A stretch of 64,000 bases of DNA from Sodaliphilus sp. (GTDB lineage: Bacteria > Bacteroidota > Bacteroidia > Bacteroidales > Muribaculaceae). Each line of letters starts with the position of its first letter. Position 1 is the first letter of the stretch. The stretch covers positions 2,844-66,843 of the forward strand of contig JBNMJK010000004.1 in NCBI GenBank assembly GCA_050873765.1. Direction: 5' to 3'. Below the pieces are notes generated by a model that made no database searches, was not told where the DNA came from, and worked only from the letters and a program-made list of their open reading frames with translations. The translations under genes and the position numbers were made by a program. Positions 27,467 through 62,238 of the stretch are shown here, in pieces.

Positions 27467-27607
27467 AGTCAAGCCCATAACCACAGCGGTTGCATATCGT
27501 TTTTTTTGAGGCGGACGCGGCCTTTGGCATGAAATTTGCTATATTGTGGGGCGTGGGGGCTGTCGCACGAACCGCACGAACCGTGCGTCCTTACTGAATA
27601 CCTCCCT

Positions 27608-27677
27608 TCTAACATCTAATTTCTAACGTCTAATTTCTGACGTCTAACATCTAATTTCTAACATCTAACATCTAATT
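27608..27677 (+). repeat. Tandem heptamer array, 10 x TCTRA(C/T)N
   Basis: TCTAACA TCTAATT TCTAACG TCTAATT TCTGACG TCTAACA TCTAATT TCTAACA TCTAACA TCTAATT. Confidence 0.92.
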
Positions 27678-28165: not shown

Positions 28166-29362
28166 ATGAAACATCTGCTACTATCTATGTTTGTGGCGTT
28201 GATGGCAGTGGCCTCATGGGCAGCCGGCAACGACCAGTACACCATTATCGTGTCGCTCGACGGATTCCGCTGGGACTATTGTGAGGCCTACAACACGCCA
28301 TTCCTCAATTCCATGGCGGCAAAGGGCGTGAAGGCTGTGATGCAGCCGTCGTTTCCCTCCAAAACGTTCCCCAACCATTACACCCTGGCCACAGGGTTGG
28401 TGCCCGACCATCATGGCATCATTGCCAACTCTTTCCGTGTGCGCGCCACAGGCAAGCGATACTCGCTTGGCGACTCCGAGACTCGTACCGATCCCCAATA
28501 TTACGGTGGCGACCCTATTTGGCTCACTGCCAAACGCCAAGGCGTGACCACCGCCACGGTGTACTGGGTGGGCAGTGATGTGGCTATCAAGGGCGATCAT
28601 GCCAATTATTGGCACGACTACCAGAAAAAGCCGCTGCTCACCGATGTGGAGCGTGCCGATGAGGTGCTGCGCCTGCTCCAGCTTCCGGAAAAGGAGCGTC
28701 CTCATTTTGTGATGTGCTATTTTGAGGAGCCCGACCACACGGGCCATGTGGCTGGACCGGTGACGAGCGACTGCCGCAAGGAGGTGGAACACATGGACGA
28801 GGTGCTGGCGTATATGTGGAACCGCATCAGTCTGCTGCCAGAGGCGAGCAAAGTGAACTTGATAGTGACTGGCGACCATGGCATGACGTGGACCGACGCC
28901 GACCGCACTGTGCCGGTGAGTAAATACATCAAAGACGAGTGGGTGGATGCCGTGGATGGCGACCTGCCTGCCAATGTGTATGTGAAAAAGGCGGCTTACG
29001 TTGACTCTATTTTGCTGGCGCTGAAGGGTGTTGACCATATTCGCGCATGGCGTAAGGCCGACATTCCCGAATATCTGCACTATGGCAGCAACCCGAATGT
29101 GGGCGATGTGCTGGTGCTTCCCGATGTGGGCTGGCTTTTCACCGACCGTAAGGTGCGCCGGGGTGGCAGCCATGGCTTCGACAACACTTGCAGTGATATG
29201 CAGGTGGGCTTCCGCGCCATGGGACCGGCGTTTAAGAACGGCTATGTGAAGGCCGACAAATTCCGCAATGTGTGCGTGTATCCGCTGCTGTGCCATTTGC
29301 TCGGTGTGAAACCTTCGGCTTGCGATGGCTCTCTTGCCGAGGTGGCTGATATGCTGAAATAG
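28166..29362 (+). CDS. Ectonucleotide pyrophosphatase/phosphodiesterase (alkaline phosphatase superfamily)
   Basis: VSLDGFRWDY, FPSKTFPNHYTLATG, EEPDHTGH, TGDHGM, GSHGFD. Confidence 0.93.
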   Translation: MKHLLLSMFVALMAVASWAAGNDQYTIIVSLDGFRWDYCEAYNTPFLNSMAAKGVKAVMQPSFPSKTFPNHYTLATGLVPDHHGIIANSFRVRATGKRYSLGDSETRTDPQYYGGDPIWLTAKRQGVTTATVYWVGSDVAIKGDHANYWHDYQKKPLLTDVERADEVLRLLQLPEKERPHFVMCYFEEPDHTGHVAGPVTSDCRKEVEHMDEVLAYMWNRISLLPEASKVNLIVTGDHGMTWTDADRTVPVSKYIKDEWVDAVDGDLPANVYVKKAAYVDSILLALKGVDHIRAWRKADIPEYLHYGSNPNVGDVLVLPDVGWLFTDRKVRRGGSHGFDNTCSDMQVGFRAMGPAFKNGYVKADKFRNVCVYPLLCHLLGVKPSACDGSLAEVADMLK

Positions 29363-29426: not shown

Positions 29427-31349
29427 ATGACTGAAAAACACGATCATTTGGCAGCTTTGCCAATGACCTTGCCTAAAATGATAGCCGAAAACCGCTCTCG
29501 CAATGAGGCGCTGAATGTGCCCTACAATCCCGTCACGGGTGAGGGGTGCTGCGGTCCGCGCCGAATGGTGAACTCGGCCGTGGCTGGAGAGGTGTGGCTG
29601 CCGCAAGCCATGCTCGACGGGGAGCCAGCCGATGTGCTGAATGATGAGTTGAGCTATAAAAAGGCAAGAATCAAATACGACTTTGAATACTGGTGCGCCA
29701 CCTGTGCCACTGTGCGCGACAAGGTGAGCGGACGCAATGTGCGCCTTCGGCTCAACGCTCCACAGCGTCATGTGCTCGCCTCCTTGGAGCGCCAGCGGCT
29801 GATGGGAAAGGGCATACGCATGATTTTGCTCAAGGCTCGCCAGTGGGGCGGATCCACGCTGGTGCTGATGTATATGGCATGGATTCAACTGGTGCTGAAG
29901 CGCAACTGGAACAGCATTATCTGCGGACATAAGCGCAGCACTTCGAGTGTGATAAAGGGTATGTATTCCAAGCTCTTGCTGCATTACCCTAAGGAACTGC
30001 TCGAGGGTGGAAAGCGCATGGAGTTTAAAACGTTTGAGGGCAATGCCCACGCCAAGATTATCACCGGGCGCGACTGTGTGGTGCTGATGGGCACGGCTCA
30101 AGCCGATGATGTGGTGCGTGGCTACGACATAGCCATGGCTCATTTGAGCGAAGTGGCGTTCTGGCCCTCTTCCACTATGCGCAATCCCGAAGATGTGATG
30201 CGCTCTATCGACGGCTCACTGCTGGTGGGCGGACTCACTGTGGAGGTGCTGGAATCGACGGCGAATGGCATTGGCTCATATTTCCACAATGAGTGGCTCC
30301 ACTCGGTGAATGGCGAAACCGACAAGCAGGCGGTGTTTGTGCCTTGGTATGAGATTGAAATCTACCGTTTGCCGGTGGCTGAGGCTGAAATTCCTGAACT
30401 GTGGCAAAGCCTTGATGGCTATGAGCGCAATTTGTGGCATATAGGCTGCACGCTGGAAATGATTAAGTGGTATCATGAAAAGCGCAAAAGTTATCTCTCA
30501 CACCATAAGATGATGGCGGAGTTTCCCTCCAATCCCACTGAGGCTTTCAGCACTTCTGGCCGGTGCGTGTTCTCGCTGCCGCGGCTCGACGCTATGCGTG
30601 CTCAGTGCCGTGAGCCTTTGGCGAAAGGTGAGTTGAAACGCTGGCAAGGAGAATGGAAGATTGTAGAAGAGGGCGAGGCGCGCCTGAAGGTGTGGGAGAT
30701 GCCCACCAGCGATGCCTTTGGCGCAAAATATGTGGTGGGTGTGGATATTGGTGGACACAGTGATGGCGCCGACTACTCGGTGATTTCGGTGATTGCCCAC
30801 CACGACGGCCTTTACGAAACGGTGGCACAGTGGCGTGGGCATATCGACCACGATCTGCTGATAGAGAAGGCAATAGATATTGCCACGTTCTATAACCGGG
30901 CTTTACTGGTGGTGGAGAGCAATACGCTTGAAACGCATGCTTCCGACGGCGGAAAATCGGCTTTTTTGCTGAAGCGGCTCCGCAGTGAGTATTCCAACGT
31001 GTATCGCCGCAAGGTGAAGAATGGCGGTGTGAAGGTGGGCTTCCAGACCAATGTGCTGACCAAGGCTCAAATCGTGAATAATTTGGTGGCGATGGTGCGC
31101 GACGGGCTTTTGGTGGAGCACGATGGCGATGCCATTGATGAAATGTGCTGGTTTGAGGAAAAGGTGGGTGGCGGCTATGGTGCCATCGACGGTAAGCATG
31201 ATGATATGGTGATGTCGCGCGGCATAGCCCTATTGGTGCTCTGCATTTATGCCGCTATGGGGAAAGCCTGTTGTGCCGACTTTCCATCGGCATTGCCGCC
31301 ACAGCCTCCTGTTGCAGCCTCGCTCGACACTGTGCTCGAGCGCCAATAG
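29427..31349 (+). CDS. Phage terminase large subunit (orphan)
   Basis: Walker A-like LKARQWGGST, Walker B-like AHLSE, coupling motif ESTANG, RNase H-like nuclease GVDIGG / VVESN / HDDM. Confidence 0.85.
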   Translation: MTEKHDHLAALPMTLPKMIAENRSRNEALNVPYNPVTGEGCCGPRRMVNSAVAGEVWLPQAMLDGEPADVLNDELSYKKARIKYDFEYWCATCATVRDKVSGRNVRLRLNAPQRHVLASLERQRLMGKGIRMILLKARQWGGSTLVLMYMAWIQLVLKRNWNSIICGHKRSTSSVIKGMYSKLLLHYPKELLEGGKRMEFKTFEGNAHAKIITGRDCVVLMGTAQADDVVRGYDIAMAHLSEVAFWPSSTMRNPEDVMRSIDGSLLVGGLTVEVLESTANGIGSYFHNEWLHSVNGETDKQAVFVPWYEIEIYRLPVAEAEIPELWQSLDGYERNLWHIGCTLEMIKWYHEKRKSYLSHHKMMAEFPSNPTEAFSTSGRCVFSLPRLDAMRAQCREPLAKGELKRWQGEWKIVEEGEARLKVWEMPTSDAFGAKYVVGVDIGGHSDGADYSVISVIAHHDGLYETVAQWRGHIDHDLLIEKAIDIATFYNRALLVVESNTLETHASDGGKSAFLLKRLRSEYSNVYRRKVKNGGVKVGFQTNVLTKAQIVNNLVAMVRDGLLVEHDGDAIDEMCWFEEKVGGGYGAIDGKHDDMVMSRGIALLVLCIYAAMGKACCADFPSALPPQPPVAASLDTVLERQ

Positions 31350-31446
31350 CACGGTTCCCTCCGATACAGAGTCATAGTAATATTAGGAATGACACCCCCA
31401 AACCGTCTGCCAAAATGAATAAAAAACGGCCTTATCGGGTGCGCAT

Positions 31447-31475
31447 AAAAAAAGGGATAGTCTCCCGACTTTCCC
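31447..31475 (-). terminator. Intrinsic terminator on the minus strand
   Basis: Minus strand GGGAAAGTC-GGGA-GACTATCCC followed by T7. Confidence 0.7.
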
Positions 31476-31626
31476 ATTTCCTTAAATACACAATTATCTA
31501 TAAAACAACTATTTTGAATCAAGATGATAAGATTTGCCATTAGCCAGAGTGTGCACGAGAGCAAATCCAAAATGTTTTGCCATAAAAGCTATAGATGTTT
31601 GGTGTCATCAGCTTTAATTATGACAC
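31447..31626 (-). ncRNA. Candidate sRNA or small-peptide transcript
   Basis: -7 box TAACTTTG (31636-31629), CTTG 19 nt upstream, 5' hairpin GTGTCAT/ATGACAC, terminator at 31447-31475; 24-codon ORF 31583-31509. Confidence 0.4.
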
Positions 31627-31739
31627 TGCAAAGTTACAACAAAATTTTATAATAGCAAGCGTTTGTATTAAAAAATATCACTTTTTTGACTAAAAAAGTG
31701 ATATTTTTGTTTGAAAAGACGTAAAAAACGGTGTTTTGT

Positions 31740-34157
31740 TTACTTGCTCCTTATATAAAGATCCGTGGCGCGAATGATTGTTCCTGATGGTGCGGTGCCG
31801 CTGATGCAGAGTCTTACGGTGCGTGTGGGAATCGTGACCACGGGCAGCGAAATCGGCGCGCCCACATTGCCATTCACCTTCGCTCCACATAGTGTGAACC
31901 CATGACAGCTTTCTCCACGCTCGCCCAAAAGCAAGAGTGAAAGATGCAGCCCCTCTCCGAATATGTTCCAGATAATTTGCGATGGCTGGCTTGCCAGGTC
32001 GGTGCCTAAGAGGATAGGGTGGGTGAGGAGCGATATGGTTTGCTCTGCCGGTGTGGTGGCGCAGATGTCGTGTACGCTGCCGTCGGGCATCACAGCAAGT
32101 GCCGTCTGTCCATCGTGGTAAAGCGATGCCGCGCTTAGCGTGAGACTTGATGAAAAACCGCCTTCATCGGTGATGCGCAGTGTGCCGTCGGCACTGATTT
32201 GCCACAGTTCTTGCTCGGCGTCGTTCCACGCCATGCCTGTCACCGATTCCGCAACGGTGGTCACCTCTTTGATTTTCGACCCCTCAATATAGCACAACCG
32301 GTGATGTGTGCTCACGAACCATATTTTTCCGCCCCCACTCACTGGGCTGGCTTGGGCATTAATCAATTTGCGGCTCATCAGCTGTGCTTCGCCAAATGTG
32401 CCATCGCTCTTTTGCGGAACGATAAATATGCCATGGTCGGTGAAGAGGTAGAGGGGATAGCGTCCGAATCCGCCAGAATAGATGGGACGCTCGGTGGCAG
32501 CCAAGGCGGTTAGCTCCACGCCGGTCACCGTTTGGCTGTAGGCGGTGGTGATGGGTTGCGCAATGTCGCTCACCGTGAGCGCGCCCGATGTGCTGATGAT
32601 GGCACCGTGCGTACTGGCATTTTCCGGCTCATCATCATGAAGGGTGAGCGGAAGCAGGTCGGGTGTGAATGTGGCTGCCATTCCACAGGCGTGGAGCGGG
32701 GTAAGCGCCCATTCAGCCGCTTTCGTGCCTTGGTCGTCACTCACCTCCATGCGGAGCGAGGTGGCGCAGGTGTGTGGCGCGCAGGCGAGAGGGTTCACGG
32801 CCGATGGCGTGAAGGGGTAGGTGCGTGTGGTGGTGATGGTGGCTTCGCCTTGGTCGGTGGCCATTTTCTCGGTCAGAGTGATGGTGCATGATTTGGCGGA
32901 GAAGGGTGGCATAAACCATGCCGAGGGCTGCCATGTCGCCACCAGGCGCTTGCTGCCGCCACCACACCACAGTCTGCCGCCATGGCTGAGCGTGCACGCA
33001 GGCAGATGCGCTTCACTGGTCTGACTAATGATGCGTGCACACTCGGCATTGGTGAGCGTTGGAGCGATTGTGGCAGGCTGTGAGAGTGTGAAGGCCGGTA
33101 TGCCAGGCAGGAGAGCGGTGGGGTTTTGAGTTGCGCCCCATGCACTGAACACGCCTTTCGCTAACGCCTTGATATTCGTGCATGATGCCACCAAATGCCA
33201 TTTGCTGTTCATCAACTCTCCCATCACCTCGCCGACGCTTCGAGGCTCTGGCCCAAACTCGGCAATGTATCGGCGTGTGCCCACCGATGTGGTGGCTATG
33301 CGGTAGTCGAGCAGTGTGGTGTCGGCCACATCGGCTTCATCGGTGATGAAAATATCTACCGACTTCACTGCATCGATCCATTCGGGGGCAGTGCCTTTCA
33401 CCACACTCACTGCCAGTTTGAAAGTGGGCAGCGAAAGGGTGGAGGCAGCGATGCCGGTGTAGTGGCCGCCACTTGTGGTGGCATCGCTTTGTGTGCGGTA
33501 ATGGTTCTGCACCGTGGTGTGGCCGATAAGCACAGGCGCGCTTATCCACAAGTATTTGTCGGAAGTGAGCCTCACACCATAGCGCGCCAGCAGAGGGCGA
33601 GTGTTTGTGCCGTTTCCTTTCGCCCTTTTTTGCAGATGGCGGTAAGCATCACGAATGATGGCGGCCATCATCTGCACATCGGCGGCGGGCAGTGGTGCGC
33701 GCCATGTGGCGAGCGGTGTGCTGAAATCGTATTGCGGAAGGTCTTCCGAAAGGGAGCCTGTGTCGATGGCTTCGAGATGCAGCTCAGGAATGGCATCGAT
33801 CACGTTGAGGCGCGAGAGTTCGCCATCGGTTCCGGTGAAGTATGCTAAGCCGTGGGAGGTGTTCACCACTAAAAATCTGCCAATGCTGTGCGCCTCAAGC
33901 ACCGCAGCGTCGGTTTTGAAAAAGAGGTTGCCATCGTGGTAAAGTCCATCGGTGTGCCACGTCACATAGTGGCCGTGGTGAATACACACGATTTTGTGTC
34001 CGGCGGTCACATTCCCGGTTTTCACGGGATTTCCCACCACCTCCACGCTTTTTTCGCGTCGGCGCACATTCATGGCTTGTGCGGCTTCGCCCGATGGCAT
34101 GGCCTCCTCGTTGTGTGCAAAAGAGGAAGTGGAAGGATAGATAGTAAGGTGTTTCAT
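31740..34157 (-). CDS. Phage tail nozzle / packaged-DNA stabilisation-like protein
   Basis: 805 aa, beta-rich; N-terminal PSGEAAQAMNV and C-terminal FGRYPLYLFTDHGIF, LLTHPILLG resemble motifs I recall from Bacteroidales prophage tail proteins. Confidence 0.55.
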   Translation of the reverse strand: MKHLTIYPSTSSFAHNEEAMPSGEAAQAMNVRRREKSVEVVGNPVKTGNVTAGHKIVCIHHGHYVTWHTDGLYHDGNLFFKTDAAVLEAHSIGRFLVVNTSHGLAYFTGTDGELSRLNVIDAIPELHLEAIDTGSLSEDLPQYDFSTPLATWRAPLPAADVQMMAAIIRDAYRHLQKRAKGNGTNTRPLLARYGVRLTSDKYLWISAPVLIGHTTVQNHYRTQSDATTSGGHYTGIAASTLSLPTFKLAVSVVKGTAPEWIDAVKSVDIFITDEADVADTTLLDYRIATTSVGTRRYIAEFGPEPRSVGEVMGELMNSKWHLVASCTNIKALAKGVFSAWGATQNPTALLPGIPAFTLSQPATIAPTLTNAECARIISQTSEAHLPACTLSHGGRLWCGGGSKRLVATWQPSAWFMPPFSAKSCTITLTEKMATDQGEATITTTRTYPFTPSAVNPLACAPHTCATSLRMEVSDDQGTKAAEWALTPLHACGMAATFTPDLLPLTLHDDEPENASTHGAIISTSGALTVSDIAQPITTAYSQTVTGVELTALAATERPIYSGGFGRYPLYLFTDHGIFIVPQKSDGTFGEAQLMSRKLINAQASPVSGGGKIWFVSTHHRLCYIEGSKIKEVTTVAESVTGMAWNDAEQELWQISADGTLRITDEGGFSSSLTLSAASLYHDGQTALAVMPDGSVHDICATTPAEQTISLLTHPILLGTDLASQPSQIIWNIFGEGLHLSLLLLGERGESCHGFTLCGAKVNGNVGAPISLPVVTIPTRTVRLCISGTAPSGTIIRATDLYIRSK

Positions 34158-34319
34158 ATCGCTAAAAAATTAAAATGAAAATAACAAATGCCCCAAAGGT
34201 AGCGAATCCCCTTCCACCAGTCAATGCCAAAACCGCCCACCCGTAACGGCCGCAAAGCTGCTTTGCAAGTAGGAAAAATCAAGAAAATTGTGCTTTTTTA
34301 AAAAGAATAGGCTAAAATA

Positions 34320-34473: not shown

Positions 34474-35178
34474 TTAGGTGAGGCGGGCGGCCGCGAGGGT
34501 GAAGAATGAGACGCGCAAGCTGGGTATCTGGCACAGGCTTTGCGCACAGCTCAGCAGGGTGGCTCCGGTGGTGATCACATCATCTACGAGCAGCACATGC
34601 TTGCCGGTGAGCGTGGCTGTGGCTTCGGGAATTGGGGCGTAAAGGCCTTTGGCGTTGAGCATACGCTCGTGGGCCGACTTGTGCGTCTGTGTGTGGTGGG
34701 CCTTCACTGCGTAAAGGGCTTCGTAGATGGGAATGTGGGTGGCATCGCTGATGCCCATGGCTATGTGAAGCGCCTGGTTGTAGCCCCGCTTTGCCAGTTT
34801 TGTGGCGTGCAGGGGCACGGGTATGATGAAGTCGATGCTGCTCCATGGCACGCTCTCGGCGGTGGATTCAGCATAGCGCCGTGCCAGCCATCTGCCCATT
34901 GATGGCACATTACGGTATTTGATGTCTTGCAGAATCTGCGCATAGGGGGTGTCACGCTCATAGAAGAAATAGGCCGTGGCAAACTCCACCGGCACCGTGC
35001 CGATGAAGCGCGCCGCCATATTGTTGAGCGGATTGGCTTCATACGTGGTGAGCGGCAGGAGCATCAAGCACTTTCTGCACACATACCGCTCGCCGCCGTC
35101 AAGGGTGGCGCCGCACACGGGGCACACGCGCGGCATCAGTATATCGGCAGTGGCTCGGAGAATGTGGCTGAGTTTCAT
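34474..35178 (-). CDS. comF: ComF-family phosphoribosyltransferase
   Basis: CPVC..CRKC zinc ribbon, PVPLH..RGYNQA, LLVDDVITTGAT. Confidence 0.9.
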   Translation of the reverse strand: MKLSHILRATADILMPRVCPVCGATLDGGERYVCRKCLMLLPLTTYEANPLNNMAARFIGTVPVEFATAYFFYERDTPYAQILQDIKYRNVPSMGRWLARRYAESTAESVPWSSIDFIIPVPLHATKLAKRGYNQALHIAMGISDATHIPIYEALYAVKAHHTQTHKSAHERMLNAKGLYAPIPEATATLTGKHVLLVDDVITTGATLLSCAQSLCQIPSLRVSFFTLAAARLT

Positions 35179-35681
35179 TCTGGCGCGTTGTTGTGGGGGT
35201 GATGGCTCATCACCTCGGTGATGATGGGGTAGAACACATCAGGCTCGAATCCGCGTGAAGCGGCGTAGCGCATAAGCGAGGCGCGCGCCTGCATTGGCTC
35301 CTTTGCACTCACATCGCGCCATTTAGCCTGCAGCAGCCTGCGGAGTGTGGCGGTGTATTCCGCCATGTCTACATCGGCGAGTGTGGCCTCAATGTGATGC
35401 TTGCCTATGCCTTTGGCCTTGAGCATGAAAGCCACCTTGATGCGTCCCCAGCCATTGAAGCGCATCTTGTCGCGGCAGTAGGCCCGGGCGTAGCGCTCAT
35501 CGTTGAGATAGCCGTCGGTCTTCAGCCGCTGAATCACGCTGTCGGCATCGTCGGCCGAAAGCCCCCAGCCCACGAGTTTGGTGTAGATATCGCCAGATGC
35601 CTGCTCTGAGCGTGCGCAAAGAGCCGCCGCCTTGTTGAGGGCGGCAGTGGTGGAAAGGGGTTTGCGTGGCGATTTATACAT
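35175..35681 (-). CDS. recX: Regulatory protein RecX
   Basis: YLNDERYARAY, WGRIKV, SRGF three-helix repeats. Confidence 0.9.
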   Translation of the reverse strand: MYKSPRKPLSTTAALNKAAALCARSEQASGDIYTKLVGWGLSADDADSVIQRLKTDGYLNDERYARAYCRDKMRFNGWGRIKVAFMLKAKGIGKHHIEATLADVDMAEYTATLRRLLQAKWRDVSAKEPMQARASLMRYAASRGFEPDVFYPIITEVMSHHPHNNAPE

Positions 35682-35830: not shown

Positions 35831-36481
35831 ATGAAAAAGTTAGATCTTCTTCTTGCTGAGAAATTGTTAAAAATCAGTGCTATAAAACTTCAGCCCGACA
35901 GTCCGTTTACTTGGGCAAGCGGCTGGAACTCACCAATATATACCGATAATCGCCTCACGCTCTCCTATCCCGAAGTGCGTAATTTCATTAAGGTGGAGCT
36001 CTCACGCCTCATTCTTGAGAACTTTGGCGATGCCGAGGTGGTGGCTGGTGTGGCCACTGGCGCTATAGCCCAGGGCGCACTCGTGGCCGACACTTTGGGC
36101 AAGCCTATGGTGTATGTACGCTCGGCTCCAAAGGATCACGGACTGGAGAACATGATTGAAGGCAATATCAAGCCAGGCCAGAAAGTGGTGGTGGTGGAAG
36201 ACCTTGTGTCCACAGGCAAGAGCAGCCTGAAGGCCGTGGAGGCTCTGCGCAATGCCGGTGCCGAAGTGGTGGGCATGGTGGCTATCTTCACCTACGAGTT
36301 TCCACAGGCTGTGCAGGCTTTTGAACAAGCCGGTGTGACGCTCGTGACACTCAGTGGCTACAGCGCTATGATTAAGGCCGCTGTGGAGACCAACTACATT
36401 AAGGCAAGCGATGAGGCACAACTTCAGCTTTGGCGTGAAGACCCTGAGAACTGGACTCCTGAAGTGGTGAATATTGACTAA
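35831..36481 (+). CDS. pyrE: Orotate phosphoribosyltransferase
   Basis: FTWASGWNSPIYTDNR, VVVEDLVSTGKS. Confidence 0.97.
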   Translation: MKKLDLLLAEKLLKISAIKLQPDSPFTWASGWNSPIYTDNRLTLSYPEVRNFIKVELSRLILENFGDAEVVAGVATGAIAQGALVADTLGKPMVYVRSAPKDHGLENMIEGNIKPGQKVVVVEDLVSTGKSSLKAVEALRNAGAEVVGMVAIFTYEFPQAVQAFEQAGVTLVTLSGYSAMIKAAVETNYIKASDEAQLQLWREDPENWTPEVVNID

Positions 36482-40956: not shown

Positions 40957-41053
40957 CGTGCAGAGGCTATAAATAAGTTCACACCACAAATATAATGATT
41001 TATTTGTGAAAAACAATGCCTCGCTCAGCCATCATTCGTTCAAAAAAATTAAT

Positions 41054-41154
41054 AGCTTCTGAAATTTGTGGAAATCGGCAATAATATTTACTTTTGTTTT
41101 GAATGAAAAAAACAGACACGATGAGACCCCTTCAAGACTATGTGTCAGTTATTA
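41054..41154 (+). repeat. About 100-bp direct repeat copy 1 (promoter plus first 11 codons of an MNT gene)
   Basis: About 87% identical by eye to 43396-43495; contains TTTG-N20-TACTTTTG. Confidence 0.88.
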
Positions 41155-41183
41155 TTTTATTGCACCCTTCACCATTTAAATAG
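41121..41183 (+). pseudogene. Truncated MNT antitoxin remnant
   Basis: MRPLQDYVSVI matches MRTLQDYISVI at 43462, then diverges and stops. Confidence 0.7.
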
Positions 41184-41214
41184 AAAAATAATTATTAAAC
41201 CTGTAATATTGAAA

Positions 41215-42786
41215 ATGAATAAAATTTGTTTTGCTTTTCTGCTTGTGTTCTTCATGGGGAGTTTGAATTTATATGCGCAATACACAAGTGAGAATTCCTT
41301 TATGCGAACAGCCTTGGTCCTATATCACAAAAACGCGAAGGGCTATTTTGAGCCATCGGAGAATGTTTTGGTGGACGCGGTGACCAATGTGACTGCTGTG
41401 TATGCTTATGACAAAAAAACACACAATCTTTATGTGAGAAACGGTCAAGGCAACTTTGTGGTTACACTAAACAACGAATACGCAAAAGTTGTCAAAAACA
41501 ACAAACATATACCACAACTCACACAAGAGGTGATAACATCGTTGGCACAGAGCGTCAACGACGAGCTGCATCGGCTCTATGCACATAAAAACGACAGTAT
41601 TCGTGCCCTTGAACGAAAAGCAAGAGAAAAGGCGATTTCCGACTCATTGGAGCTTGCCAGGGTAACGCAAGAGAAGGAAGATGCTGCCAGGCTCAAAAAG
41701 GAGCAGCGCGACAAGGATTTTGGCGTTTACAGAAATATGGCTTCATACAGCCTTGTTCCATTAGATGGAAATGTTCTTGAGTGTGCCGACTGTGGAAAAT
41801 ATTTTGATAAAAGCTATGTGGTGACGGAAGCTATTAAGCATGATTCAATCTATTTCATTACACCAATTACCAGAGAACTACAAGATGACTACGTGGCATT
41901 TCACGTAGCCGCTATTCCAAACATTCTGAAAACCGACCCAAACTTCATGTATCATGTGGAAGCCTTTGCCGACAGTCTTTGCAATGACACAGTTTACACG
42001 CTTTCGTATATCAAGAAAATGAATCAGTTTGCCGTGGCTAATCATTATAGAAAGGTATTAAACTTAGCGCCCTATGGCTATATAGGTGATTGGGGTTGGG
42101 GAAATGAATACTCTTTCTTGACTTTTAATTTTTCATTTACTAATCTTAACAAAAAGACTATAAAATACATTGATGTGTATTGGAAGGTAACGAATGATGT
42201 GGGTGACATTAGAAAAGTGGGGCATTTTAAAGGCACCGGACCTCTCACACAATATGAATCGGCCAGTTGGGATTGGGATTCATCATCGTATTATGTGGCT
42301 GGCGACGCTTCTAATATGCAGCTCACTAAAGCCATCATCACATATATGAATGGCTCTCAGAAAATATTATCCGGTAAATCGCTGCTGGTCAACAGTGAGT
42401 CGGATTATGTTGATGAAATGTCGTCGGACAAGCCACGCACATCATACGGAAGTTTCGTGCTTGACTACCACACCAACGACAATAGTATTGTAGATACTCC
42501 AGCAATGTATGCAGAAGGAAGTGTTCAACTTTATGAAGATGTTAATCGAAACTTACATTACACCCCAAACCGCTCCAAGGAGCACAAACTGGCGCAAGTG
42601 GTTTTGAAAATAGAAATTAATAAAGATGGAACCATCGGAGATGTGGCCGTTGAAAAGTCATACAATGCCACATACGACAATATTGCGAAAAACGTTGTGG
42701 CGAAACTTGGCAAATTCACACCTGCAAGGCACGATGGGAAAAAGGTGAAAGTATGGTATAGGCTACCAGTCATTTTCTATTTGTGA
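41215..42786 (+). CDS. Secreted protein with C-terminal TonB-C domain
   Basis: Signal peptide MNKICFAFLL; INKDGTIGDVAV..FTPARHDGKKVKVWYRLPVIF; AT-rich. Confidence 0.8.
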   Translation: MNKICFAFLLVFFMGSLNLYAQYTSENSFMRTALVLYHKNAKGYFEPSENVLVDAVTNVTAVYAYDKKTHNLYVRNGQGNFVVTLNNEYAKVVKNNKHIPQLTQEVITSLAQSVNDELHRLYAHKNDSIRALERKAREKAISDSLELARVTQEKEDAARLKKEQRDKDFGVYRNMASYSLVPLDGNVLECADCGKYFDKSYVVTEAIKHDSIYFITPITRELQDDYVAFHVAAIPNILKTDPNFMYHVEAFADSLCNDTVYTLSYIKKMNQFAVANHYRKVLNLAPYGYIGDWGWGNEYSFLTFNFSFTNLNKKTIKYIDVYWKVTNDVGDIRKVGHFKGTGPLTQYESASWDWDSSSYYVAGDASNMQLTKAIITYMNGSQKILSGKSLLVNSESDYVDEMSSDKPRTSYGSFVLDYHTNDNSIVDTPAMYAEGSVQLYEDVNRNLHYTPNRSKEHKLAQVVLKIEINKDGTIGDVAVEKSYNATYDNIAKNVVAKLGKFTPARHDGKKVKVWYRLPVIFYL

Positions 42787-42879
42787 AAAGATTGCCCTGG
42801 TAAATTTTTTTGATTTGAAAAATTTGGTATGTCAAAACAAATAGCTATTTTTTGTGTCAAACTATTGATGTGTAAATCT

Positions 42880-43191
42880 ATGATTAGCAGTGATATAATA
42901 AGTGCAATACCAAAAGTGCAGCAGTTTCTTTTAGGTCTGCCAGTGAAGAAAGCATGGCTTTTTGGCTCTTGTTCGAGAGGAGAAGATACGCCAAGTAGCG
43001 ATGTGGATATTCTTGTGGAATACGATCGAGATAATGCAAGGATTACACTAATGACCATTTCTGCTATAATGATAGGACTTGAAGATATTTTTAATCGCAG
43101 CGTGGATCTTGTTGAAAACGGTATGCTGTTACCTTTTGCGGAAAAAACGGCTAACAATGACAAATTCTTGATTTATGAGAGAAAAAATTAA
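42880..43191 (+). CDS. Minimal nucleotidyltransferase (MNT) antitoxin 1
   Basis: LFGSCSRGED..SDVDILVEY motif. Confidence 0.88.
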   Translation: MISSDIISAIPKVQQFLLGLPVKKAWLFGSCSRGEDTPSSDVDILVEYDRDNARITLMTISAIMIGLEDIFNRSVDLVENGMLLPFAEKTANNDKFLIYERKN

Positions 43192-43231
43192 AGACAAGGA
43201 CCGGCTGTTGGAAGATGAGGATATGGTATGA
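43175..43231 (+). pseudogene. Truncated HepT/DUF86 toxin remnant
   Basis: MREKIKDKDRL overlaps the MNT stop like a DUF86 N-terminus, then stops after 18 codons. Confidence 0.6.
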
Positions 43232-43322
43232 ACCTCGCTATTGCTGACTGTAGGTCTGTTCGCAATGAACTTGCATTATACCCCCCCCGTTCCTGCGCCA
43301 CTGTGAATGTTCTTATAAGCGG

Positions 43323-43337
43323 GTGGCGGTGACGAAG
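43323..43337 (-). repeat. 15-bp att-like direct repeat (copy of prmC 3' end)
   Basis: GTGGCGGTGACGAAG is identical at 44289-44303 within prmC. Confidence 0.8.
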
Positions 43338-43395
43338 TTGTCGGTTTTGAGAAGAGTTTGAGATATTTATAGTAATTGTTTTAAAAGTAATAAGC

Positions 43396-43495
43396 AGCTT
43401 CTGAAATTTGCGAAAATCGGCAATTATATATACTTTTGCTTTAAATGCAAAAACAGACAATATGAGAACCCTTCAAGACTATATATCAGTTATTA
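43396..43495 (+). repeat. About 100-bp direct repeat copy 2 (promoter plus start of MNT 2)
   Basis: Matches 41054-41154. Confidence 0.88.
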
Positions 43496-43761
43496 AGCAA
43501 AATCGTGCGAAAATCACAACCGATTTTGGTATAAAGCGTTTGTGCGTGTTTGGATCTGTGGCACGAAATGAACAGACGGAGCAAAGCGATTTGGACGTGT
43601 GTGTGGAAACAGAAACACCTAATCCATTCTTGTTGGCCGACTTTAAAGACTTTTTGGAACAATTGTTTAAATGCTCAGTTGATGTGGTTCGATTTCATAA
43701 GAATATGAATCCTCTCTTCAAATCCAGAATAGAAAAGGAGGGCGTAGATGCTATACGATAA
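43462..43761 (+). CDS. MNT antitoxin 2
   Basis: VFGSVARNEQ..SDLDVCVE; start moved to ATG 43462. Confidence 0.88.
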   Translation: MRTLQDYISVIKQNRAKITTDFGIKRLCVFGSVARNEQTEQSDLDVCVETETPNPFLLADFKDFLEQLFKCSVDVVRFHKNMNPLFKSRIEKEGVDAIR

Positions 43762-44122
43762 AGAAGTGGTTCTGAACATTCTGAATAGAATTTTGGCTTC
43801 AATTGAGAGTATAGAAGATCGGTCAAAACCATATCGCTGTTCTGATGATTTTTTTGTGAATCCTGTTGGGGTCGCAATTCTGGACTCAATCTGTATGCAA
43901 TTTATTGCAATCGGAGAAAGTTTGAAGGGTCTTGATAAAATCACAAAGGGCGAACTTTTGTCAACGCATCCAGAGATAGATTGGAAAAATGTGAAAGGGC
44001 TACGCGATATTATAGCACATCACTACTTTGATATTGATGCAGAACAAATATGGTGGATTATAGAGAATGAACTTTCATCTTTGAAGAAGGCCATAATCGG
44101 AATGATTGATGATGTGAAATAG
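43748..44122 (+). CDS. HepT/DUF86 HEPN ribonuclease toxin
   Basis: IAIGES, WKNVKGLRDIIAHHY (RxxxxH plus Y); overlaps the MNT stop. Confidence 0.9.
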   Translation: MLYDKEVVLNILNRILASIESIEDRSKPYRCSDDFFVNPVGVAILDSICMQFIAIGESLKGLDKITKGELLSTHPEIDWKNVKGLRDIIAHHYFDIDAEQIWWIIENELSSLKKAIIGMIDDVK

Positions 44123-44272
44123 ACTGTTCGCTTATGCGCTTGGTATGGCGCAATATCTTGATAAATAGATTGATGACGCAATCTTATGAGACAATGTGAC
44201 TTGCGTTATATTGCAATATGAGGGCATGGTTTGCTTGTGGAAAATTTCAGGTGATTCGTGGTTTAACTTCTA

Positions 44273-45127
44273 TTAGGGGGCAGGCTTTGTGGCGGTGACG
44301 AAGCGGGGATTGCCGAACTGGTCGGCGGTCACGCATGCCTGCTCGAAGCCGTGGCGGGTGAGGAGTTGACAGGTGGCTTCGCCAAACCTGCGGTTGATTT
44401 CCAGATAGATGCGTCCACCTGGGCTCAACGCCACTGCTCCGTAATTGGCAATGGCACGGTAAAAGAGCAGCGGGTCGGTGTCTGGTACGAACAGAGCTGA
44501 GGCTGGCTCGTGCTCCAGCACATTTCGCTCCATGCCGCCGCGCTCACTCTGGCAGATGTATGGCGGATTGCTCACTAAAATGTCGAGACTGCCGCTCTCT
44601 GGTTTCGCGTGCAGAATGTCGGCATGGGTGAATGTCACCTTTGCCCGAAGCGCCTTTGCATTTTCCTCTGCCACCTTCAGCGCATCGTCGGAAATGTCGA
44701 TAGCCTCCACTTCTGGCCACTGGAGCGCCAAAGCCAGTGATATGGCGATACAGCCGCTGCCCGTGCCCACGTCGAGCACACGCAGGTCGGCCTTGCCGTG
44801 AGCATCATCTACAATTATGTCAACGAGCATCTCTGTTTCGGGTCGGGGAATGAGCGTGGCGGGTGTCACCTTCAGCACATGGCCATGAAAAGAGGCTCGC
44901 CCCAAAATATACTGGATAGGCTCACCACTGCAAAGGCGGCAGGCAATGGCACGGATATGCTCCACAAAAGCAGGGTCCTGCTCCACGTTGCCCCGCAAGA
45001 GCACATCCACGGGAGTGTAGTGCAGCACCTCCTCCATGATGATGCGCACCAGGGCACTGGCTTCGCGCTGGCCATAGAGTGGCGCCAGCCGCGATTTTAG
45101 TTCAGAAACGATTTGGTCGGTGGTCAT
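44273..45127 (-). CDS. prmC: Release factor glutamine methyltransferase
   Basis: EPIQYILG, LIPRPETE, LDVGTGSGCI, VSNPPYI; start moved to ATG 45127. Confidence 0.96.
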   Translation of the reverse strand: MTTDQIVSELKSRLAPLYGQREASALVRIIMEEVLHYTPVDVLLRGNVEQDPAFVEHIRAIACRLCSGEPIQYILGRASFHGHVLKVTPATLIPRPETEMLVDIIVDDAHGKADLRVLDVGTGSGCIAISLALALQWPEVEAIDISDDALKVAEENAKALRAKVTFTHADILHAKPESGSLDILVSNPPYICQSERGGMERNVLEHEPASALFVPDTDPLLFYRAIANYGAVALSPGGRIYLEINRRFGEATCQLLTRHGFEQACVTADQFGNPRFVTATKPAP

Positions 45128-45192
45128 AGGCATATTGCGTGATTTCTTATGAGCGTGATTGAAAGTTGACATTTCTTATTTAATTGTTGTAG

Positions 45193-46110
45193 CTATCTCC
45201 AAATTGGATTTTCCTCCCATCCTTTTGTGAAGCCAATCATGAATATTGGAATATTTGGGTATGAAGCAAAAAGATTCTTTATGTCCTGCTTGATTGTGTT
45301 ATTTGGACAAATCGCATTGCACAGATATAGAAGACAGGATATTACGCCAAAAGCACGTTTGCGCTGGTGTTCTGTCAAGTCTGAGCGCATCCAATTATCC
45401 CTATGGCGGTTGATGTTGGTTGGCTTCTTGGAAAATATCTTATACCATAGTCTTGAATGATGTGCGATAATATTTCGTAAGACAGAAATAGCTTCTAACC
45501 AACTTGAAAGTTCTCTGGCTGAATACAAACCGAATTCGTTTGCGATTCTTGACTTAAGCGGAGATTGATTCAGTAGGTTTTTGTACATTTTGGAAAGTGT
45601 TCCAAATGTGGCAGTTTCAAAAATTATCCATGCGTCAGGGTTGTCTCCTTCAAATGAGTTCTTGTTCCAATTGTGATGGCCCAAAATATATTGACGTACA
45701 AAAGGATCAGAATTTCTATCAAACTCATATTTCATATCCAACACCAGGTTTGCATGAAACTGCTGATTGTTGAAAAGAGAACCATTCAGATACCACAGCC
45801 CTGTATTTGTTGCCAGCGAAAGTGTTGTTATGAATTTTGTGCGCAATCCTACTTCCAGGATTTCAATTGCGCCAAAAAGAATGTTACGCAACTTTTTATC
45901 AAGCTCATATCTTCCTATAACCATGTCGAAATTTGCACCATTAATGAAATTCCCAGTATTGACGTCTAACATATCCACCCAATAATATTTTAAGCGGAAA
46001 TAGCTAATCCTCGACAAATACGAAATGGCATTTGGTTCATCATTAAATACCATTCCCTTTTCTTTAAGTCGGCACAATTGCTCTTGTATAGTTCTTGGTC
46101 TCTGATTCAT
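45193..46110 (-). CDS. Abi_2 (AbiD/AbiF-like) HEPN protein
   Basis: ISYFRL, ILEVGLRT, FGTLSKMY, LRNIIAHHSRLW HEPN motif; AT-rich; start moved to ATG 46110. Confidence 0.88.
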   Translation of the reverse strand: MNQRPRTIQEQLCRLKEKGMVFNDEPNAISYLSRISYFRLKYYWVDMLDVNTGNFINGANFDMVIGRYELDKKLRNILFGAIEILEVGLRTKFITTLSLATNTGLWYLNGSLFNNQQFHANLVLDMKYEFDRNSDPFVRQYILGHHNWNKNSFEGDNPDAWIIFETATFGTLSKMYKNLLNQSPLKSRIANEFGLYSARELSSWLEAISVLRNIIAHHSRLWYKIFSKKPTNINRHRDNWMRSDLTEHQRKRAFGVISCLLYLCNAICPNNTIKQDIKNLFASYPNIPIFMIGFTKGWEENPIWR

Positions 46111-46136
46111 TTCATAATATGTATATATGTACATAT

Positions 46137-46185
46137 AAAAAATGACTCGCTTGCAGTTCTGATGGGATGCAAACGAGTTCTGTTG
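46137..46185 (-). ncRNA. Candidate leader RNA / RNA antitoxin of the Abi gene
   Basis: 11-bp stem ACTCGTTTGCA/TGCAAGCGAGT plus T-tract, between promoter (46189-46219) and ATG. Confidence 0.5.
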
Positions 46186-46188
46186 ATG

Positions 46189-46219
46189 CAAAAATACAAA
46201 TAAATTCTGGTAATGCAAA
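46189..46219 (-). promoter_or_regulatory. Sigma70 promoter of the Abi gene
   Basis: Minus strand TTTG-N19-TATTTTTG. Confidence 0.7.
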
Positions 46220-46527
46220 TCTTTTGGCAAGAAAAATTCTAAATAATATTTTATCACATTAAAATTGTGGTTGGTGGAAGCGGTGGAGGAGGGGCGGATT
46301 GGTGAAAAACGGTAGGGGAAGGCGGCGGCCGCGTTAAAAAGGTGTAAAAAAGAGCGGTTACTTCTTTTAATATCTTAATTTGTAAGCGCCATTTGCCACT
46401 TAAATATTAATTTTACACGTTGAACAATGTGCAGGGCTCGCGCGTGTTACTATATAAAAGCACTGGCGAACCCCACATTATTGATGATTTTTTTGTAAAT
46501 TTGTACTTTCAAAGTAAAATTAGATAG

Positions 46528-48012
46528 ATGAACAAGAGATATTCCATGTACATACTGCTGGCGATGCTGCTTGGCTTCGCCGTGAGCTCGTGCAGCTCCA
46601 CAAAAGACGATCCAACCAACACCGATTCTACAATCTCGCCCAACAGCTACACCTCCACACTGGTGTCGAATTTCAGCTTGGGCTCCAACTCCAAGGTGCT
46701 CTACAACCTTGACTCGGTGTACTTCTCTATCGACCAGGACAAAAACCTCATCTACAATGCCGATTCTCTGCCCAAAGGAACCGACGTGTCGCACCTTACC
46801 GTGTCGGTCACATTCCCCACAGCTGTTGGCAAGGCGGTGTTTAAGGTGAAAGACAGCAAGTGGATGGAAAAGAAAGAGGTGGAATACACCAGCGAGACCA
46901 CCGACAGTATCGACTTCACCAGCCCTGTGGAATTGGAGGTTACCTCACAAGACGGCAAAAACATTCGCACCTACAGCGTGTGTGTGAATGTGCACAATAT
47001 CAAGCCCGACTCACTGTACTGGGATCAGCGCGCCCGCCGCGACCTCCCAAACACCAGCGGCTCGGCTAAGGCTGCAAAAACAGTGGCCTTCAATGGCAAA
47101 TACGCCTGCCTCGTGGCCGACACTTATGGCTACGTGCTTTCCTTCGCCACCAACCCCGGTCAAGGCACATGGGAAAGGAAGACGGTGGCGTTCGACTTCA
47201 CGCCCAATGTGGAGTCGCTCACAGCCTCGTCCGATGCGCTCTACATTCTCTCCAATGCCGGACAGCTCTACAAGAGCACCGATGAAGGCTCCACCTGGAC
47301 TGGCTGTGGCGTGATCTGGCGCAGCATCAAGGGCGCCTACGCCGGCAAGGTGCTTGGCGTGATCAGCGACGGCGGAGAATACAAGCACGATGAATACCCC
47401 CGTGGCAGCTACACCCCGGTGGCTTTGGAAGATGAATTCCCGGTAGAGGCTTCGTCGGAATTTGTGATGGCCAACAATAAGTGGACCACCACGCAGCAGG
47501 GTATGCTTGTGGGTGGTATCGACAAAAACGGAAAAACCGTGCGTGCCGTATGGGGCTACGACGGCAAGACCTGGGGGCGCATCGACAACGAAACCTTCTC
47601 GCCACTTCCTGCGCTTGAAGGCGCGTCGCTTGTGTCGTATGCCTCGTTTAGCAACGACAGTGTGACCCACCGCCAGACTAAGCGCACCACCTGGCTTGTG
47701 CTTGGCGGACGCAAGGCCGACGGCTCGATGAACCGCGCCACTTATGTTTCCTACAATCAAGGTATCACCTGGAGCAATGGCGGACTGGCACTTCAGTTGC
47801 CGTCGTATATGCCTTCCTTCACAGGCGCCAACGCCTTCGTGGTGGAAGAAACCATGTCGAAGAAATCACGTGCTTTCGCACCCGTGAAGCCTGTGACCCA
47901 ATGGGAGTGCCCCTACATCTATCTTGTGGGCGGCAAGAATAGCAGCGGTGAGCTGTATAACAGTATTTGGAAAGGCGTGATCAACCAACTCACCTTTAAG
48001 CCTCTTTACTAA
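46528..48012 (+). CDS. DUF6242-like lipoprotein
   Basis: Lipobox VSSC; FSIDQ..IYNADSLPKGTDVS; IDFTSPV. Confidence 0.78.
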   Translation: MNKRYSMYILLAMLLGFAVSSCSSTKDDPTNTDSTISPNSYTSTLVSNFSLGSNSKVLYNLDSVYFSIDQDKNLIYNADSLPKGTDVSHLTVSVTFPTAVGKAVFKVKDSKWMEKKEVEYTSETTDSIDFTSPVELEVTSQDGKNIRTYSVCVNVHNIKPDSLYWDQRARRDLPNTSGSAKAAKTVAFNGKYACLVADTYGYVLSFATNPGQGTWERKTVAFDFTPNVESLTASSDALYILSNAGQLYKSTDEGSTWTGCGVIWRSIKGAYAGKVLGVISDGGEYKHDEYPRGSYTPVALEDEFPVEASSEFVMANNKWTTTQQGMLVGGIDKNGKTVRAVWGYDGKTWGRIDNETFSPLPALEGASLVSYASFSNDSVTHRQTKRTTWLVLGGRKADGSMNRATYVSYNQGITWSNGGLALQLPSYMPSFTGANAFVVEETMSKKSRAFAPVKPVTQWECPYIYLVGGKNSSGELYNSIWKGVINQLTFKPLY

Positions 48013-59828: not shown

Positions 59829-60515
59829 ATGAAAAAAACTATCCTGTTTGTTATCGCCATTCTCGTCATGGGCTGCCTATTTTTCAAGGTTCAAAAGGCG
59901 GTTGTTGCACAGTTAGCAGTGGCTAAAGAAAGTTTTCTAAAAAGAATACCCAAAAATGCGATATTGGGGGTAGATGTTTCTCATCATAATTACCCGGTTG
60001 ATTGGGCATTACTTCGTGAAAATAAGATGAAGTTTGCTTATGTGAAAGCATCTGAAGGAGTTACGCACGTTGATCCTAATTTTCATGAGTATGTAAAAGC
60101 TGCGCGAGCAGGGGGTATGAAGGTAGAAGCATATCATTACTTTAGAGCTGAAACGCCGGTAAAGGATCAGTTTATGAATTTCTATGCTTATGTGGGCCAA
60201 TGTGATTTGATTCCAATGCTTGACGTAGAGCATCACGCTACTAAAAACCTGACCAAGGTCCAAGTGAGGCAGCGCACTATGGAGTTTGTGAACTTGTGCA
60301 AAAAATACTATGGCATGGCTCCGATACTGTATTGCTCGGAATCAGACTGGAAGCAGTACTTTTCAAAAGGGTTTGAAGACTGCCTGTGGTGGGCAGATTC
60401 AAAGGGAGTGGCGCCTAAAACATCTTGGGATTTGTGGCAATATAATATAGAGAACGGCTACGACCGCAATTGCGTGAAGCCCAACATCTACAAAAAACTA
60501 TTCCTCCCCAACTAA
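59829..60515 (+). CDS. GH25 muramidase (lysozyme)
   Basis: GVDVSHHN, YVKASEG, AYHYFR, PMLDVE; N-terminal hydrophobic anchor. Confidence 0.9.
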   Translation: MKKTILFVIAILVMGCLFFKVQKAVVAQLAVAKESFLKRIPKNAILGVDVSHHNYPVDWALLRENKMKFAYVKASEGVTHVDPNFHEYVKAARAGGMKVEAYHYFRAETPVKDQFMNFYAYVGQCDLIPMLDVEHHATKNLTKVQVRQRTMEFVNLCKKYYGMAPILYCSESDWKQYFSKGFEDCLWWADSKGVAPKTSWDLWQYNIENGYDRNCVKPNIYKKLFLPN

Positions 60516-60547
60516 CCTCCTATTTAGCATTGCATAAGTATGTAATA

Positions 60548-61522: not shown

Positions 61523-62238
61523 AGGATATTCCAGTTTCTTTTGTTCGACAATACTTTATCGGAGACAGACAACTTATAGCTTGTCAATCCGTTTAAAGAT
61601 CGGCTTATGACGCCAGTGTCATAGCCCATATTTTCATATATGGCACCAAGCAAAGCCCTGACATAGGGCGTGTAGGTTAACGCCAGTTTTGCCAGTTTCT
61701 TTTTTTTGTCATCTGGAAGTGCCTTTATCGTGCTGCAAACTTTCTTTACACTTTCATCTGGTGAGGATGCAGGAATTTTCTTGATAAGACGCATGGCATC
61801 CAATATTCTTAATAGTGGAATATTACTTTGAGTGATTACGTTCTCCTGTAAAAGAAACGATATCTTTAAGCCGCCTCTTGTGATAGGTCTGCGGTACTTG
61901 TTTGTGCCGATAAGGATAGAGGAACTTATTTGTGTTGTCAATCCTATGGAAGCAAATGCGGCAGTTCCTGTTATGTAGCCAACAGTCTTTCCGTCTCGCT
62001 CTAAGAATTCCTTTACAAGTTCAGAGTCTGATGGCTTCAACTTTCCAAAAATGGTATTCTTAGGGATATAGTATCTCCCTTTAGCTACTTTTTGCAGTTC
62101 ACCTTGGAACACAAGACGGCTCAAGGCTTTGGAGAGTGCGGGCTGATATCGCATGCCTACGCCAAAGTCTTTAGTTGTCAATACTACTCCAGCGGGGGTT
62201 GATGACAATTTTTTCTTTATCTGTCTTGTAATAATCAT
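61519..62238 (-). CDS. AbiEi-like antitoxin (DUF6088-type)
   Basis: N-terminal wHTH (LSRLV..KVAKGRYY), GLTTQI; 4-nt overlap with the toxin. Confidence 0.85.
   Translation of the reverse strand: MIITRQIKKKLSSTPAGVVLTTKDFGVGMRYQPALSKALSRLVFQGELQKVAKGRYYIPKNTIFGKLKPSDSELVKEFLERDGKTVGYITGTAAFASIGLTTQISSSILIGTNKYRRPITRGGLKISFLLQENVITQSNIPLLRILDAMRLIKKIPASSPDESVKKVCSTIKALPDDKKKKLAKLALTYTPYVRALLGAIYENMGYDTGVISRSLNGLTSYKLSVSDKVLSNKRNWNIL

Follow-up and report, generated by a model that had tools for sequence, protein, structure and literature searches.

How does a bacterial chromosome come to carry the gene for a phage DNA-packaging motor beside the gene for a podovirus tail nozzle, with no other part of a phage near them, and what might such a pair do for its host? 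The question is raised by a 64,000-nucleotide stretch from a Sodaliphilus sp. of the family Muribaculaceae (GenBank assembly GCA_050873765.1, contig JBNMJK010000004.1, positions 2,844 to 66,843 of the forward strand; the whole stretch is called the window here). An initial annotation had pointed to two long convergent open reading frames (ORFs) in it, and both were present as described, 390 bp apart: one encodes a protein like the large terminase (TerL) of phages and the other a protein like a tail nozzle (Table 1). From the evidence that follows we hold the pair to be, very probably, a functional, domesticated host module derived from a phage.

The first product was identified as a terminase by its match to the PHROG family phrog_2 (E 7e-19) and to four other terminase PHROGs, and by its alignment with T4 gp17 through both the ATPase and the nuclease domains; it found no match in Pfam, NCBIfam or PADLOC. 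The motifs named by the initial annotation were located both by position and by the T4 gp17 alignment. The Walker A lysine stands at the front of the motif (KxxxxGxS/T) and not in a GKT, and a lysine-first P-loop of this kind resembles the deviant Walker A motifs. LKARQWGGST was found in 76/80 chromosomal orthologs, with the remaining four differing at one residue, and it is identical in the TerL of Bacteroides phage BF1-TP2; the deviant motif is therefore a trait of the lineage and not a mark of decay. At Walker B the chromosomal clade keeps H-L-[ST]-E and the viral clade H-x-S-E. The coupling motif ESTANG was kept in 79 of the 80 orthologs, and the nuclease acids, among which D440, E497 and D592 line up with D401, E458 and D542 of T4 gp17, were retained in all 80 and were invariant in the phage alignment also. 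To judge from these alignments, TerL retains every residue predicted to be needed for ATP hydrolysis, DNA translocation and DNA cutting. Two conserved cysteine motifs, GEGCCG (residues 37-43; 29535-29555) and WCATC (residues 87-95; 29685-29711), were frequent among the chromosomal TerLs but lacking in most of the viral ones, and may represent an acquired metal-binding site.

The second product was without a match in Pfam, NCBIfam or PADLOC, showed no signal peptide by eye, and gave nothing meaningful when the protein or a 61-sequence profile of its family was searched against PDB sequences. A first AlphaFold model built from 14 sequences was poor (pLDDT 60) and its fold matches merely suggestive; addition of nine distant homologs gave a good AlphaFold2 model from 23 sequences (pLDDT 87.8, pTM 0.81). 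The top eight PDB matches that Foldseek found with this model (E 1.8e-13 to 1.3e-7) were without exception nozzle or hub chains of podoviruses, including those of SU10 (1.8e-13), HRP29, Pa223, T7 gp12 (5e-9), P22 gp10 (1e-7) and Carin-1, and they ranked ahead of generic beta-propellers; the GP4 and Sf6 nozzles were matched at lower ranks. The viral-structure library BFVD agreed, returning matches named P22 Gp10, tail tubular protein B and stabilization protein. Compared with the characterised nozzles of SU10 (7Z4B), T7 (gp12, 6R21), P22 (gp10, 8EAP and 8U10), Sf6 (gp8), HRP29, Carin-1 and GP4, the window protein matched in fold at E 1e-13 to 1e-6 and was close in length to T7 gp12 (794 residues), whereas global TM-scores were 0.25-0.42, sequence similarity was not detectable (hhalign of the 61-sequence profile against P22 gp10 and T7 gp12 gave a probability <1%, not significant), and the window gene adjoins no adaptor, needle or fibre gene. 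At the level of the modelled fold, the 805-residue protein is clearly a podovirus tail nozzle or hub, the identity that the initial annotation had given it. In podoviruses the nozzle is the hexameric hub that closes the portal-adaptor channel.

True sequence homologs of the nozzle protein were found among phage proteins of unassigned role. It matched phrog_32516, a function-unknown family (E 3e-15), as did 52/61 members of its own family, and a hidden Markov model (HMM) of that family found gp33 of BF1-TP2 (E 4e-56), colinear over the full length, whereas these phage proteins are longer, at 870-940 residues. The phage homolog surfaced by the HMM alone; a tblastn search of INPHARED with the nozzle gave no match. 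In a public protein library the family comprised 2776 representative clusters at E <= 0.001, and a third homolog search with the nozzle profile yielded just 19 proteins. Over loci L018-L083 the family fell into two length classes, ~800-870 and ~630-720 residues; the short forms matched the profile as two stretches (~1-400 and ~500-800) and appear, from this pattern, to be without the middle segment.

The homologs of both genes in the BF1-TP2 lineage indicate that the two came from the same phage lineage. BF1-TP2 is the closest TerL in INPHARED, at 37.7% identity over 96% of the length, and the best match to the window TerL among the 2.9 million contigs of IMG/VR was 39% identical, so the viral collections searched held no near-identical copy. 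The TerLs of BF1-TP2, BKO1-TP3 and BS-TP4 (PQ571263, PQ571269, PQ571277) and of related IMG/VR contigs resemble that of the window at 36-39% identity over >90% of the length, with LKARQWGGST, ESTANG and the nuclease acids identical and an N-terminal extension in common. They differ in that the phage gene adjoins a portal gene and a gp58-like gene within genomes of 45-75 kb, whereas the window gene adjoins neither, is chromosomal and vertically inherited, and has the extra conserved cysteines. Nozzle relatives in IMG/VR numbered 256, with matches 19-35% identical and mostly partial; homologs in genuine phage comprised BF1-TP2 gp33 and those of the viral contigs L089, L099 and L105. The TerL of BF1-TP2 (L001 20049-22076; PQ571263.1, gp60) is labelled "tail spike protein" in GenBank, as are those of BKO1-TP3 and BS-TP4, which looks like a mis-annotation.

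In a scan of one genome per GTDB species, at least 577 genomes, most of them from Muribaculaceae, encoded a TerL relative. The best 80 of these at least 577 relatives (44-87% identity) all came from records of Muribaculaceae, Sodaliphilus or Muribaculum, or of older names of that family. In a neighbour-joining tree the 80 chromosomal TerLs formed one clade with zero viral sequences inside it, and its sister was the BF1-TP2-like viral clade. The comF-recX-pyrE-cydAB synteny and the convergent partner were kept in orthologs at 78% and at 53% TerL identity, and among the loci examined the pair lay beside recX in 19 and beside comF in 18, which is probably the ancestral position. By synteny, monophyly and a housekeeping-like synonymous divergence (dS), the pair has been inherited vertically across the Muribaculaceae. 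The best explanation is that it was captured from a BF1-TP2-like Bacteroidales podovirus at or near the base of the family and has been inherited vertically since. Two contigs with a Muribaculaceae-type terminase are titled otherwise, L038 (CAVFVP010000016.1) as Agathobacter rectalis and L082 (CAVEIP010000004.1) as [Ruminococcus] lactaris; L038 also has the comF-recX-pyrE neighbourhood, and both are probably mislabelled or contaminated bins.

We examined if the two genes remain together, using the nozzle-family HMM over 8 kb around TerL and counting as informative those loci with >=3.5 kb on both sides. The nozzle gene was within 8 kb of TerL in 58/67 informative loci, despite five arrangements. 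It lay immediately upstream of TerL on the same strand in 28 loci, with gaps of -124 to +126 bp, most of them <40 bp, an arrangement suggestive of an operon; it was immediately downstream on the same strand in 11; the two were convergent as in the window in eight; and in the remaining linked loci they were divergent or a few kb apart. In some species a SulP permease, a C10 peptidase or genes of a polysaccharide utilization locus (PUL) lay between them. All-against-all clustering of the ORFs of 83 loci found no third co-conserved gene, and a shared upstream motif was sought and none found. The initial annotation had taken the convergence as a sign of separate promoters, a reading that could not be upheld, with most Muribaculaceae pairs co-oriented and adjacent. 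In BF1-TP2 the nozzle homolog is ~21 kb from TerL; in the viral contigs L099 and L105 TerL and the nozzle homolog are convergent and ~1.5 kb apart, like the window, and in many related phages TerL and portal are convergent. The window layout was therefore either inherited or made by a local inversion: it is a quirk of the lineage and does not show that the two genes were domesticated independently, each with its own promoter.

The pair is under purifying selection. In the cleanest comparison (L002 with L008, dS ~0.1), TerL had a dN/dS of 0.036 and the nozzle one of 0.287, with seven neighbours at 0-0.16, and dS of the pair was 0.11 against 0.06-0.15 for the neighbours. The window compared with L009 gave 0.08 for TerL and 0.20 for the nozzle, and more distant pairs gave 0.08-0.15 and ~0.20. 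The nozzle evolved at ~2x the amino-acid rate of TerL and with a dN/dS 3-8x as high. One TerL in ~80 was possibly broken: in the metagenome-assembled genome (MAG) L086 (7881-9932) it is split into ORFs of 242 and 417 residues, with no nozzle within 8 kb, and this represents either a pseudogene of that species or an assembly error of the MAG. Four metagenomes containing the organism had even read depth over the pair and its flanks, with zero contigs joining across a deletion of the pair, so that patchy presence among strains was not seen. No RNA run was found that covered the window. For "Barnesiella sp. WM24" (L055) one run, obtained under an RNA filter and of a library type not on record, had a depth of 1-9 over the nozzle-TerL operon against 140-460 over the flanks; if the run is RNA, the operon is weakly transcribed.

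Around the pair, the window is host chromosome. When the ORFs of the window were compared with the proteins of BF1-TP2 and of 80 related viral contigs, the pair alone gave matches; a portal profile derived from related phages had 0 matches in the 83 chromosomal loci (8 kb each side of TerL) and in the window; and no working partner of the terminase, small terminase or portal, is encoded alongside it in the window. A scan of metagenomes with the portal profile matched phage and prophage portals alone, at 48-100% identity to the query portal, and was uninformative on a domesticated Muribaculaceae portal. In relative synonymous codon usage (RSCU) both genes follow the window core genes, with correlations of 0.84 (TerL) and 0.91 (nozzle); the Abi, GH25 and TonB-like genes of the AT-rich islets reach 0.11-0.30. 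Much of what the initial annotation had proposed is borne out here: the host-like codon style, the orphan status of the pair, its setting between a phosphodiesterase and comF-recX-pyrE, and its domestication, for which vertical descent, purifying selection, monophyly and the lack of a close copy in viral collections all speak.

Table 1. Positions, within the window, of the terminase-nozzle pair, its motifs and the adjoining genes
Feature	Position	Strand	Residues	Remarks
TerL-like gene	29427..31349	+	640 aa	
TerL N-terminal region			1-100	lineage-specific, rich in conserved cysteines
TerL ASCE ATPase domain			~100-330	
Deviant Walker A, KARQWGGST	29832..29858	+	136-144	aligned with T4 gp17 SRQLGKTT
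Walker B and catalytic glutamate, AHLSE	30138..30152	+	238-242	aligned with T4 gp17 IYIDE
Coupling (C) motif, ESTANG	30252..30269	+	276-281	aligned with T4 gp17 TTTPNG
TerL RNase H-fold nuclease domain			~430-600	
Nuclease acids D440, E497, D592/D593	30741..31205	+	439-443, 497-499, 591-593	VDIGG; ESN in VVESNT; HDD in KHDDMV
Perfect 17-bp inverted repeat, 4-nt loop	31671..31708			AT-rich gap between the convergent stop codons; read from sequence
Nozzle-like gene	31740..34157	-	805 aa	mostly beta
Type I phosphodiesterase/NPP gene	28166-29362			upstream of the pair; Pfam annotation
comF-like gene	34474-35178			downstream of the pair
recX	35175-35681			downstream of the pair
pyrE-type phosphoribosyltransferase gene	35831-36481			downstream of the pair

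The inverted repeat between the two stop codons folds as RNA at -15.2 kcal/mol (z = -4.2; 0/200 shuffles folded equally well) and is a candidate two-way terminator, a function suggested by its fold and position. On the minus strand at 34194-34201, 37-44 nt upstream of the nozzle start codon, the letters TACCTTTG fit, by eye, TAnnTTTG, the Bacteroidetes -7 promoter box. Beyond pyrE follow a small conserved ORF, a patatin-like lipase gene and cydBA. The larger ORFs across most of the 64 kb were annotated with Pfam, and the remainder proved to be an ordinary Bacteroidales chromosome (a SusC/SusD PUL with a GH3 enzyme, a sugar transporter of the major facilitator superfamily, an N-acetylglucosamine 2-epimerase, BamA, SecA and cytochrome bd) and, besides these, two AT-rich abortive-infection (Abi) islets. 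The first holds an Abi_2 (AbiD-like) gene at 45193-46257 (-), with a Pfam E of 4e-46, GC of 0.36 and foreign codon usage (RSCU r 0.15), in AT-rich surroundings spanning 41000-47000 where a low-GC TonB-C-terminal protein gene adjoins (41140-42786, GC 0.40); it looks like a recent acquisition for defence, unrelated to the terminase pair. The second (59829-62238) holds an AbiE-type toxin-antitoxin pair, made up of an AbiEii toxin gene (60632-61522) and its DUF6088 partner (61519-62238), adjoined by a GH25 muramidase gene (59829-60515), and all three have GC of 0.41-0.42 and foreign codon usage. In the intergenic stretch at ~27606-27675, the number of CCGTCTAACCG units varied among metagenome contigs, which had many differing loose ends, as might be expected of a short element that is repeated or present in several copies.

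What the pair does must be judged from what its two products do in phages. A terminase has to be docked on a portal before it can translocate DNA, and a nozzle needs a portal-adaptor complex on which to assemble; both products keep their full architecture, TerL with all its catalytic residues, and we therefore favour, tentatively and as something short of probable, action on capsids whose other parts come in trans. Those parts could be the products of unrecognised genes elsewhere in the genome, in which case the whole would amount to a dispersed, podovirus-type gene transfer agent (GTA). Alternatively, resident or infecting BF1-TP2-like phages could be the source: their procapsids would be filled by the host terminase and capped by the host nozzle, which would divert phage assembly and put host DNA into particles, with or without a benefit in defence. 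That the Muribaculaceae own a podovirus-derived packaging system in this full sense, being either the first GTA of the Bacteroidota, with dispersed and unannotated capsid genes, or a minimal chromosomal "capsid-hijack" module that loads BF1-TP2-like procapsids with host DNA and then caps them, is a possibility that we regard as somewhat unlikely.

The comparison with known systems cuts both ways. The pair resembles the GTAs RcGTA, BaGTA and VSH-1 in being phage-derived and non-mobile, in its family-wide vertical inheritance under purifying selection, in its intact large terminase, and in having no autonomous phage counterpart. It differs from them in that known GTAs have portal, capsid and tail genes clustered with or near the terminase, whereas two genes are seen here and no particle is known; the known GTAs are, moreover, long-tailed particles and not podovirus-like. 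Phage satellites (PICI, cf-PICI, PICMI, P4 and PLE) are likewise host-resident and carry few packaging or assembly genes with which helper capsids are exploited, whereas they are mobile, integrase-bearing, replicating and patchy, and those with a minimal set carry the small and not the large terminase. The pair is immobile, with no integrase or replication module near it, and its distribution is family-wide and vertical, not patchy.

Several observations weigh against capsids supplied in trans. Genes for portal, capsid, scaffold, adaptor and small terminase were not found within 8 kb in the 83 loci or in the window, and a gp58-like small-terminase candidate survives in one chromosomal locus alone, whereas in known GTAs most of the genes for head and tail share a cluster. 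We know of no phage in which TerL and the nozzle touch, and virion architecture alone therefore does not explain why the two are so tightly linked. Particles, too, are here a prediction. In the closed genome of Muribaculum intestinale YL27, in which the presence of the pair is not confirmed, no region was called a prophage by VirSorter2 or VIBRANT (PMC10197239); this argues against a clustered head-tail locus in M. intestinale. In favour of the packaging model, a 2026 preprint describes uniform or sloping virus-like-particle coverage of Muribaculaceae (Duncaniella) contigs, with the mechanism unidentified (doi 10.64898/2026.07.08.737213); we treat this coverage of the particle fraction as circumstantial and as a lead only.

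The main rival, which we consider unlikely, is interference with infecting phage. Here the diverged phage subunits would act at the portal vertex when BF1-TP2-like podophages infect: the terminase of the host would compete for the portal and cut or mis-package DNA, its nozzle would cap adaptors non-productively, and phage yield would fall with no role in gene transfer, in the manner of satellite interference or of the gag-derived restriction factors of animals. The source phage lineage is common as prophages in gut Bacteroidales, no further structural genes would be required, which fits their absence nearby, and the faster evolution of the nozzle is as expected of a surface that tracks a phage partner; the shallow depth of the WM24 run over the pair, its library type not being on record, would also suit such a role. 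However, PADLOC had no match, the pair lies among housekeeping genes with conserved synteny and host codons and not in the AT-rich islets where the Abi genes are found, and family-wide vertical retention with a TerL dN/dS of 0.04 would be uncommon among defence genes, whose distribution is typically patchy. A subunit acting purely as a poison, moreover, would not need all of the ATPase and nuclease residues, yet all are conserved. The "defence decoy" that the initial annotation had offered as an alternative likewise drew no support from PADLOC or from the distribution.

Quite unlikely, in our estimate, is a cellular DNA transaction without virions, in which the terminase would be an ATP-driven translocase-nuclease, functionally like HerA-NurA, and the nozzle a ring or scaffold, with repair, recombination, or uptake or degradation of DNA as the possible roles. 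This explanation draws on the position beside recX and comF, which is ancestral and has often been kept, on the housekeeping level of purifying selection, on the absence of capsid genes nearby, and on the conserved cysteines (GCCG, WCxxC) that the chromosomal clade gained in the N-terminal region, the part of a phage terminase that contacts the small subunit. Yet there is no precedent for a nozzle outside the virion, and the full nozzle architecture has stayed colinear with the phage homolog. The recX-comF neighbourhood has been lost in most lineages whereas the link between TerL and nozzle persists, and the neighbourhood is therefore probably mere ancestry.

A decaying prophage remnant without present function is very improbable. 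Such a remnant could be read from the two phage genes left and from the split TerL of L086, and some neighbouring genes are of phage type: a BF1-TP2 gp58 homolog (phrog_27246) adjoins TerL in L030 (7417-7929, -), gp58 being the gene directly upstream of the phage TerL and a candidate small terminase, and a phage-type N-acetylmuramidase gene (PF11860) lies between the pair in L059 (7168-7785, -) and L060 (7217-7885, -). These genes appear to be leftovers of the ancestral prophage. Against decay stand the intact, full-length ORFs in ~80 species at 42-99% TerL identity, the dN/dS of 0.04-0.15 for TerL and 0.2-0.29 for the nozzle, the catalytic motifs kept in 76-80 of 80 orthologs, and the linkage preserved through repeated rearrangement; selection, synteny and composition thus contradict the prophage relic that the initial annotation had kept in view. 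An intact or recently integrated prophage or mobile island, which the terminase match alone would lead many prophage predictors to call, was rejected as practically negligible: the 64 kb hold no integrase, att site, portal, capsid, further phage module or other phage-lineage gene, zero tRNA genes and zero Rfam matches (the (pro)phage loci, in contrast, had a portal within 8 kb of TerL in 66/80), codon usage is that of the host, chromosomal synteny is conserved, no close relative was found in IMG/VR or INPHARED, and read depth was even with no excision joints in the four metagenomes.

Domesticated phage genes are known as a concept; as far as we have found, a family-wide module of terminase and nozzle without portal or capsid is new, and in the literature searched we found no description of this pair, of an orphan terminase in Muribaculaceae, or of a GTA in Bacteroidota. 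The pair escapes Pfam, NCBIfam and PGAP, and even in the RefSeq isolate "Barnesiella sp. WM24" both proteins (WP_135043008.1 and WP_135043010.1) are annotated as "hypothetical protein". Domesticated phage machinery, as in GTAs, tailocins and contractile injection systems, has repeatedly proved biologically important. Here, in at least 577 species-level genomes, of which the best-matching ones belong to the Muribaculaceae, a major family of the mammalian gut, an apparently competent packaging ATPase-nuclease is kept, yet the portal and capsid expected with it are not beside the pair. Cultured carriers such as WM24 make its function directly testable. If the pair packages DNA into particles, genes would have a new way of moving in the gut and Bacteroidota their first system of this kind, and a GTA or "capsid-hijack" module would explain the uniform virus-like-particle coverage of Muribaculaceae genomes; if it blocks phage, it would be a bacterial restriction of capsid assembly by captured viral structural genes.

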